Shown in pieces: positions 5,891-6,344 of a DNA stretch of 8,111 nucleotides. The translations under genes were made by a program, and so were the position numbers. This DNA comes from a virus (lineage: Duplodnaviria > Heunggongvirae > Uroviricota > Caudoviricetes): the IMG/VR virus record IMGVR_UViG_2563366830_000002; one strand, given 5' to 3'. The notes below the pieces were generated by a model that did no database searches, had not been told where the DNA came from, and saw only the letters and a program-made list of their open reading frames with translations. Position 1 is the first letter of the stretch, and each line of letters begins with the position of its first letter.

Positions 5891-5913
5891 GCCCGGTTCG
5901 CCGGGCATTTTTT
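5891..5913 (+). terminator. Terminator-like hairpin (GCCCGG-TTCG-CCGGGC + ATTTTTT) directly upstream of the ORF139 RBS; possible attenuator
   Basis: 6-bp GC stem with UUCG tetraloop and a 6-T run seen directly. The RBS AAGGTGA (5914..5920) and ATG (5925) follow with no room for a promoter in between. Confidence 0.55.
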
Positions 5914-5924
5914 AAGGTGAGATC

Positions 5925-6344
5925 ATGAAGACAATTGATATGTTGGCTAAGTATCTAAATGAATGGCCATTAAAATATTCTCGTATCGTTCAGGCTGAAG
6001 ACTGCATTTTTTATGGCGTTTTTGCTGGTAATGAAATGCATTACGAAGTAATTCAGAGTGAGGGACTGGCCGGGTTAACTCTTAGCGAAGACCATGGTAC
6101 TAGCGTTACGTTCCATGACTGGATAACAGCACAACGTTCTGAAATGGAAAAAGGCGATGTTTTTGATATTTCTCGCGCTGTTTACGCTAAAGCAAAAAGT
6201 GATAATGATTACATGAGCGAACACTTATACAACATGAAGTTACAATGCCTGCATGCGGCGCTTATTCAGAATGGGCACTTCGATAAAACAAGTGCCATCA
6301 ATATTGCGGAAGCCATCAACGCTGGATTTAATGCCATTAAGTAA
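5925..6344 (+). CDS. Hypothetical protein (139 aa), low-GC accessory (moron) gene of unknown function
   Basis: ORF track. SD AGGTG 5 nt upstream of ATG; own terminator downstream. First 60 nt contain 18 G+C (30%) by my count versus 28/60 (47%) in a sampled capsid-gene stretch (1501..1560). Orientation is opposite to all structural genes. No recognisable motif, no obvious signal peptide or TM segment. Confidence 0.7.
   Translation: MKTIDMLAKYLNEWPLKYSRIVQAEDCIFYGVFAGNEMHYEVIQSEGLAGLTLSEDHGTSVTFHDWITAQRSEMEKGDVFDISRAVYAKAKSDNDYMSEHLYNMKLQCLHAALIQNGHFDKTSAINIAEAINAGFNAIK

Follow-up and report, generated by a model that had tools for sequence, protein, structure and literature searches.

An 8,111-nucleotide stretch of the genome of a Caudoviricetes virus (IMG/VR record IMGVR_UViG_2563366830_000002), hereafter the window, carries a short G-C hairpin followed by a run of T residues, T2, directly in front of the open reading frame ORF139. 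In this study, we argue that T2 is probably a true factor-independent terminator which closes a repressor-controlled unit of transfer RNA (tRNA) and non-coding RNA, and that ORF139 is expressed by passive read-through. We describe the anatomy of T2, its conservation and covariation, the strand on which it acts, the junction that it shares among relatives, the lack of a promoter or attenuator next to it and the purifying selection on the gene behind it. That termination actually occurs at T2, and with what efficiency, we infer from these features.

According to this explanation, a repressor operator overlapping the promoter of the unit would keep it silent in the lysogen and allow it to be switched on early in lytic growth. 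The products of the unit would be, in order, a structured leader RNA, tRNA-Arg(UCU), a DicF-like RNA ending at a first hairpin, T1, and a segment reaching from hairpin H2 to T2. T2 would act in the plus-strand RNA and form the main 3' end of this small unit, which lies antisense in the late operon. A slot for accessory (cargo) genes would start directly after the U-tract, with a ribosome-binding site (RBS) that belongs to the conserved junction. Since ORF139 has no promoter, its messenger RNA (mRNA) would be made solely by polymerases that continue past T1 and T2, by passive and partial read-through. T2 would keep the non-coding RNA well in excess of the cargo mRNA and restrict cargo expression to the period in which the unit is on.

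T2 has the form of a canonical terminator

5891-5913, plus strand: T2, intrinsic-terminator-like hairpin with stem GCCCGG/CCGGGC, loop TTCG, A and T6
5914-5921, plus strand: RBS of the cargo slot, AAGGTGAG, part of the conserved left junction
5925-6344, plus strand: ORF139, cargo gene, start codon ATG at 5925-5927 (PHROG 4846, E = 2e-89)

Read directly, positions 5891-5927 are GCCCGG TTCG CCGGGC A TTTTTT AAGGTGAG ATC ATG. Positions 5891-5896 pair with 5901-5906, all six pairs being G-C, and A5907 is followed by six T residues at 5908-5913. The free energy (dG) of the hairpin is -11.2 kcal/mol. Its tetraloop is closed by a G-C pair (gUUCGc) and thereby differs from the extra-stable cUUCGg form. 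A loose terminator scan of the window reported T2 with 6/6 G-C pairs and gave no overall enrichment (6 sites found, 8.2 expected). For this reason a strict definition was applied, namely six Watson-Crick pairs of which five or more are G-C, 3-8 nucleotides (nt) in the loop and T6 within 8 nt. T2 is the sole strict site on either strand of the window, compared to a mean of 0.01 in 200 dinucleotide shuffles, 0.5% of which contain any site. The whole 39-kb genome of phage phiV10 reveals two strict sites, T2 and the terminator after the repressor gene.

Family loci were collected from 13 annotated relatives and by scanning IMG/VR with the conserved 15-mer CGCCATTGCGATGAC, which resulted in 100 loci. 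About a quarter of the IMG/VR matches to CGCCATTGCGATGAC lay outside the family and were removed by demanding TGTAAA after it. T2 and its T-run are present in every family locus that reaches that far (approximately 97-98) save one, L103. Two types of stem prevail: GCCCGG/CCGGGC in the E. coli type and GCCCAC/GUGGGC in the Salmonella type, the latter found in epsilon15, SPN1S, PAT1 and many uncultivated genomes. The exchange of GG/CC for AC/GU between the types amounts to two adjacent compensatory double changes in the Salmonella-type lineage. HEMP4 (CUGGGC) and L023 (GCCUGG) carry single C-to-T variants which preserve pairing as G.U on the plus strand and produce A.C mismatches on the minus strand. 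In 24 distinct sequences 96.5% of the cells are paired, versus 89.9% after shuffling (0 of 500 shuffles reach the observed value) and 19-58% when the partner column is slid. Loops vary (TTCG, TTCGT, TTCC, TTCA, TTAG and an inverted form, CGAA), whereas every relative having T2 retains the A and a T-run of T5-T10, mostly T7. The T2 loop of L085 (CGAA) and the T1 loop of L107 are exact inversions of those in the other members and may have arisen by inversion across the arms of the stem.

A chance hairpin is ruled out by the shuffles under the strict definition together with conservation and covariation in about 97 related loci. In the RefSeq record of epsilon15 (NC_004775), the T2 orthologue at 2559-2582, before gene p50, is annotated as 'rho-independent terminator'. 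It shares with T2 its position, the A plus T7 and the RBS directly following. It differs in its stem (GCCCAC/GUGGGC), and epsilon15 has no leader core, no tRNA and no intact T1 and carries a PF13876 protein instead of ORF139 as cargo; the label itself is the curators' prediction, for which we found no experimental support. T2 thus combines a G-C stem and short loop, a U-tract, compensatory stem changes and a place at the end of a transcription unit. Judged by these features it is an ordinary intrinsic terminator, the kind of signal already predicted in epsilon15. An earlier, sequence-only reading of the window had described a terminator-like hairpin with G-C stem, TTCG loop and T6; the comparison confirms it as canonical, conserved and directed along the plus strand. 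The repressor-controlled unit of tRNA and non-coding RNA that T2 would close was no part of that reading.

It is highly improbable that the hairpin is instead a signal of the minus strand or of the DNA, i.e. a structure in the late mRNA or a mere recombination boundary for the exchange of cargo. T2 does lie at the left junction of a hot spot of cassette exchange, and the loop inversions in L085 and L107 would suit such a boundary. However, viewed from the minus strand an A-run (A7) precedes the hairpin and GAACTGG follows it, so that there is no terminator there and termination is possible for plus-strand transcription only. Both wobble variants become A.C mismatches on the minus strand, and the strict conservation of the T-run has no role at the DNA level.

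Cargo genes share the RBS behind T2

In approximately 76 of 97 related loci the T-run leads directly into AAGGTGA..ATG, which serves at least 12 unrelated genes. Occupants of the slot are PF13876 variants, the ORF139 family, a Tad2-like protein (PF11195), proteins of 146, 98, 88 and 61 amino acids and an 8-codon remnant. Homology between the window and phiV10 ends at the start codon, where phiV10 has a PF13876 gene (gp49/66) in place of ORF139. The sequence-only reading had the hairpin abutting the Shine-Dalgarno sequence with no room for a promoter between them, and indeed the gap between T-run and RBS is 0-1 nt.

In 21 loci, similarity is lost immediately behind the T-run. Most of these have a good sigma-70 promoter with an operator palindrome in the spacer (e.g. 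GTGACT-N17-TAAGAT, TATACT or TAATAT; TTGCCA-N17-TATTAT), followed by a larger cargo of 200-340 amino acids. The contrast between promoter-bearing and RBS-using cargo is the strongest argument for dependence on read-through: where the cargo has its own promoter, T2 would be the boundary of the unit, and where it has none, the resident RBS is used and transcription through T2 would be needed. The cargo of 200-340 amino acids represents a separate coiled-coil protein family with its own operator-controlled promoter.

ORF139 shows a ratio of nonsynonymous to synonymous substitution rates (dN/dS) of 0.1-0.4 among six homologues. It is a real gene under purifying selection and must therefore be transcribed through T2. 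Hence the earlier claim that ORF139, given efficient termination, is expressed only by read-through is well supported by the shared RBS junction, the alternative cargo with promoters and the selection on ORF139. No match to ORF139 was found in Pfam, NCBIfam, PADLOC or the PDB. The Tad2-like (anti-Thoeris) occupant was found in Klebsiella prophages (L007, 1708-2229; PF11195, E = 4e-26). By analogy with it, the other occupants of the slot, ORF139 included, are candidate anti-defence genes.

The right side of the slot is equally well defined:

6349-6360: 12-bp perfect palindrome GTGACATGTCAC, right edge of the cargo slot
6365-6392: hairpin T3 between the convergent ORF139 and terL (dG -11.5 kcal/mol)

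GTGACATGTCAC persists where relatives have other cargo and where only the 8-codon remnant is left. T3 ends the plus-strand unit, and phiV10 annotates it on the terL strand. Terminator, U-tract, RBS and ATG on the left together with palindrome and terminator on the right form a fixed docking site for at least 12 unrelated accessory genes, at least one of which has a known anti-defence fold (Tad2-like). In TL-2011b, a similar palindrome, GTGATACGTCAC, is found after T2.

Search for regulation of the read-through

Upstream of T2 the plus-strand unit comprises the following elements:

5408-5581, plus strand: structured leader RNA of approximately 170 nt, with hairpin A, long-range helix B, hairpin C (loop UCACCA) and hairpin D
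5651-5727, plus strand: tRNA-Arg, anticodon UCU (ARAGORN; Rfam tRNA, 73 bits)
5730-5750, plus strand: hairpin H0 (ATCACGCC..GG..CGTGAT), tRNA trailer, in the RNAalifold consensus and nearly invariant in relatives
5771-5812, plus strand: hairpin T1, 14-bp stem, 8-nt loop, C and T5, the first terminator-like site
5810-5849, plus strand: hairpin H2 (UUUACAG...CUGUAAA), two pairs with compensatory changes in RNAalifold
5863-5885, plus strand: hairpin H3 (GGAAG...CUUCC), just upstream of T2

The sequence-only reading had proposed to look for a promoter in the spacer 5813-5890. Our scan detected no sigma-70-like site there, and none is conserved in the alignments. Inspection by eye yielded poor hexamers only (TTTACA-N17-TGACTT; TGTAAA, without the key A2 and T6). 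PAS61 is without 33 nt of the spacer and retains the arrangement. H3 lies within the 33 nt missing there and is, on this comparison, dispensable. As for attenuation, the RNAalifold consensus of 13 diverse sequences contains H0, T1, H2, a short stem and T2 only, without any pairing that competes with T2. A small ORF starting at ATG 5834, tried as a leader peptide, loses its frame in Salmonella relatives through indels of 1 and 4 nt, and no Rfam aptamer was matched upstream of T2 at E values up to 5. With no promoter in the spacer, no competing pairing and no kept frame, classical attenuation is disfavoured and appears unlikely. Expression of ORF139 had been predicted to be conditional if T2 terminates efficiently. 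The dependence on read-through stands; regulation of the read-through is unproven, and attenuation in particular finds neither an alternative pairing nor a leader peptide. The best reading of these data is that read-through is unregulated, i.e. that T2 would be passively leaky.

The leader RNA and processive antitermination

The leader RNA at 5408-5581 is the element that might change this picture. Six of its pairs show compensatory changes (RNAalifold, 15 diverse sequences). Hairpin D (CCUCG-GAAGAGA-CGAGG, 5562-5578) combines an invariant GAAGAGA loop with a covarying stem. A pseudoknot CACC/GGUG is probable in view of the change to AACC/GGUU in mEp460. Our covariance model R1 scores the leader of the window with 146 bits and finds one copy per genome; Rfam gave no match to 5408-5581 at E values up to 5. 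Homologues are found in lambdoid phages without N and in Stx2c phages, just downstream of cI, in P1/P7-like phages between trnI and ban, and also in Klebsiella siphophages and in vB_SmeS_BUCT708 (recorded host Stenotrophomonas). In the lambdoid setting the homologue lies in the early-left leader, ahead of a DicF-like terminator. The RNA is unannotated in every genome where it was found.

Regulated processive antitermination has to be considered. Either the leader alone, as HK022 put does, or a phage protein bound at the GAAGAGA hairpin, as N is at boxB, would render the polymerase resistant to T1 and T2, and ORF139 would be expressed efficiently and conditionally. The leader is suitably placed between promoter and terminators, as are its homologues between cI and the DicF-like terminator of the N-less lambdoid phages, and its covarying helices and probable pseudoknot point in the same direction. 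A boxA-like string, TGCTCT(C/T)T, follows the leader. In BUCT708 an RprA-like terminator and more hairpins with GAAAGA loops come after it. The Tad2-like cargo of the slot would favour high expression. Nevertheless, HK022 has neither sequence similarity (blastn) nor a covariance-model match to the leader. The element is single-copy per genome and has no counterpart on the rightward early operon of mEp460; a second copy that could form a pair like putL and putR was sought with the covariance model and was not found. No N-like gene is annotated in phiV10. With the 7-nt loop of hairpin D, the single copy, no similarity to put and no annotated N gene, the features of a put- or nut-type site are not found. 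The P1 element precedes ban without an intervening terminator. Furthermore, in the epsilon15-type loci L004, L072 and L096 the leader core, the tRNA-Arg gene and half of T1 have been lost through a deletion between two copies of GGTTCCCTTGATGCT, so that what is left of T1, its 3' half, is fused to the beginning of the leader; H2, T2, the RBS and the cargo are nevertheless retained. We regard antitermination as improbable for T1 and T2.

A wider proposal, that the leader is a new cis-acting processive antitermination RNA common to Uetakeviruses, N-less lambdoid phages and P1, with T1 and T2 read through only from repressor-controlled promoters, seems to us quite improbable. If true, ORF139 and other cargo would be switched on efficiently only from the repressor-controlled promoter.

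Evidence for and against passive read-through

Termination at T2 with passive read-through into the cargo is thus the explanation that we favour, with several points weighing against it. The covariation of the T2 stem goes back essentially to one event in one lineage and two wobble variants and is supportive rather than overwhelming; two other variants of T2 break one pair each. Literature searches on the phiV10/epsilon15 group turned up neither mapped 3' ends of transcripts nor Northern blots or reporter assays. The presumed promoter of the unit has a weak -10 element (3/6 matches), so that the source of its transcription would be assigned from sequence. Tad2 is expected to need high expression, so that a strong terminator is not well suited to stand ahead of a Tad2-like occupant. 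Finally, the conserved, pseudoknotted leader upstream could modify the polymerase.

If passive read-through holds, a simple expression rule would follow, according to which cargo genes are on only early in lytic growth and only by read-through of a terminator. The leader RNA, the tRNA and the small-RNA-like modules of the unit probably merit more attention than the T2 hairpin.

The segment between T1 and T2 and its possible roles as RNA

The dG of T1 is -22.3 kcal/mol and its stem covaries (variants GGCGGTGAT, GGCGGTGGC and GGCGGTACC). T1 is DicF-like in position and terminator shape, and scores below threshold as DicF itself (Rfam RF00039, 16.9 bits compared to a gathering threshold of 48, E = 1.1). 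In Salmonella relatives T1 is followed by T4 only, and for this reason T2 looks like the principal stop. The 5' strand of H2 is the U-tract of T1 (UUUAC), and H2 encloses the invariant CGCCAUUGCGAUGAC.

These features raise the possibility of a small regulatory RNA of approximately 5813-5913, or of 5728-5913 after tRNA processing. The T2 hairpin and U-tail would be its Hfq-type 3' module, the conserved single-stranded CGCCAUUGCGAUGAC and GCUGUAAACC would pair with targets, and cargo read-through would be a by-product; this is compatible with T2 being a passively leaky terminator. A T7 tail is typical of Hfq-binding small RNAs, and the sequence of T2 has both the hairpin and a U6-U7 tail. Conservation is higher in the segment from T1 to T2 than in the cargo, and relatives retain the segment regardless of what comes after it; H2 covaries, and the module turns up in a different phage setting as well (L039). 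Neighbouring modules in relatives are sRNA-like, with a weak DicF match and an RprA-like element of 50 bits in BUCT708. On the other hand, 5813-5913 has no Rfam match, the candidate has no defined promoter or processing site, and 33 nt of the segment are dispensable in PAS61. We consider such an RNA possible, though rather doubtful.

A slim chance is given to a post-transcriptional role, namely a cut by RNase E in the U-tract, a cut by RNase III in a duplex of plus-strand RNA with the convergent late mRNA, or a function of the U-tract as an S1-binding translational enhancer for ORF139. The distance of 19 nt between the 3' end of the hairpin and the ATG places that end at the border of a ribosome footprint, and the U-rich stretch adjoins the RBS. 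All of the unit runs antisense to the spacer between terL and gp3 in the late operon, and the epsilon15 record marks an RNase III site nearby. Still, a terminator is the simpler account of a hairpin with a U-run, and T2 is kept where a new promoter follows and no RBS adjoins.

At gathering threshold Rfam detects the tRNA alone in the unit, and a permissive search adds the sub-threshold DicF at T1. AgvB, AsxR and STnc100 do not match the unit, and the Pas small RNA (described in a preprint) is unrelated. Many Uetakevirus relatives (e.g. L020, L115, SPN1S) carry an RprA-like string, UUGCUGUGUGUAGCUUUGGCGG, right before T1, where the window is DicF-like. BUCT708 (L017, 2631-2750) has an RprA-like small RNA of 50 bits in Rfam, not reaching the gathering threshold of 70; we take its 3' half to be nearly identical to that of E. 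coli RprA.

Promoter and operator of the unit

5292-5320, plus strand: promoter-like site TTGACA-N17-TACCCT, presumed start of the unit with putative activity and transcription start near 5327
5314-5328: operator-like palindrome TTACC-N5-GGTAA, exact match, overlapping the -10 element

The promoter-like site is kept in E. coli, Salmonella and Klebsiella relatives; a simple promoter scan overlooked it on account of its -10 element. The palindrome TTACC-N5-GGTAA occurs in nine perfect copies in phiV10. Allowing up to 2 mismatches, there are 36 sites versus 11 expected, a number reached in 0 of 100 shuffles. Clusters of them are found between the repressor gene p40 and the gene diverging from it, beside the terminator that follows p40, and behind two further annotated terminators. 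The layout of a terminator followed by an operator, as seen in the loci with T2 and an operator, is repeated elsewhere in phiV10. In the epsilon15 record the orthologous operator site is labelled 'repressor; lysogeny'. From the overlap of operator and promoter, the unit would be repressor-controlled and hence active in lytic growth. The palindrome copies in phiV10 (L018; positions 87, 3252, 20497, 31953, 32015, 32727, 35070, 35132 and others) are dispersed at the starts of transcription units and resemble the dispersed operator system of P1 C1.

Comparison with known systems

The arrangement is reminiscent of dicF-dicB in Qin and of the 'dicF-like region' before ban in P1. In both, an early prophage operon under repressor control has a small RNA, ending in an intrinsic terminator, ahead of a protein gene, and dicB needs read-through of the small-RNA terminator upstream. 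In Stx2c phages, the stretch that follows the leader is related in sequence to the one ahead of dicF in Qin, and the C1-controlled ban operon of P1 contains tRNAs, the dicF-like region and a homologue of the same leader. However, the DicF-like part in the window is T1, below the Rfam threshold, and not T2. In Qin, dicB lies approximately 175 nt after the dicF terminator instead of abutting it, and a T2-like hairpin is lacking.

Internal partial terminators such as the rplL-rpoB attenuator and the one before dnaG in rpsU-dnaG-rpoD lower the expression of the distal gene by constitutive leak. They are located between protein genes, whereas T2 separates a non-coding unit from horizontally exchanged cargo. 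Lambda N/nut and HK022 put likewise have a structured leader RNA in a repressor-controlled early operon ahead of terminators. The leader of the window differs in having no similarity to HK022, a single copy, no N gene and a 7-nt loop instead of the boxB pentaloop. With phage morons (the HK97/HK022 concept) the slot has in common that it is an accessory site on the opposite strand of the structural region, closed by a terminator (T3). In contrast to morons, the cargo of the window has no promoter, neither in the 0-1 nt gap nor in the spacer; only the 21 divergent loci fit the concept.

In Stx phages, early termination at tR' downstream of PR' is reported to yield the small RNA StxS, and the downstream genes need read-through (PMC7547250). 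At tR' the read-through is driven by the Q antiterminator, and no such factor or site came to light for T2.

Genomic setting

The minus strand of the window encodes structural genes, namely terL (7910-6435), a gp3-like gene of 68 amino acids (5223-5017), portal (5002-3323) and major capsid (2341-1349). By DNA similarity, the window is a Uetakevirus (phiV10/epsilon15-like) prophage. T2 is contained in a plus-strand insert between terL and gp3, and the whole unit is antisense to the late operon. Its order is operator-overlapped promoter, leader RNA, tRNA-Arg, H0, T1, H2, H3 and T2. A minus-strand ORF of 83 amino acids (5657-5908), annotated as a hypothetical protein in phiV10 (PhiV10p04), TL-2011b and EC.W1-9, runs antisense through the tRNA and T2. 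It is very likely spurious as a gene, being antisense to the tRNA and with its frame broken in Salmonella relatives.

In DNA searches, the region 5300-6450 shared 94% identity with phage HEMP4 and, with the ORF left aside, 97% with phiV10. The chromosome of E. coli MS 196-1 matches 5640-6440 at 100% identity. Among 5426 complete E. coli genomes, 515 contain part of the module and 59 of these also carry ORF139.

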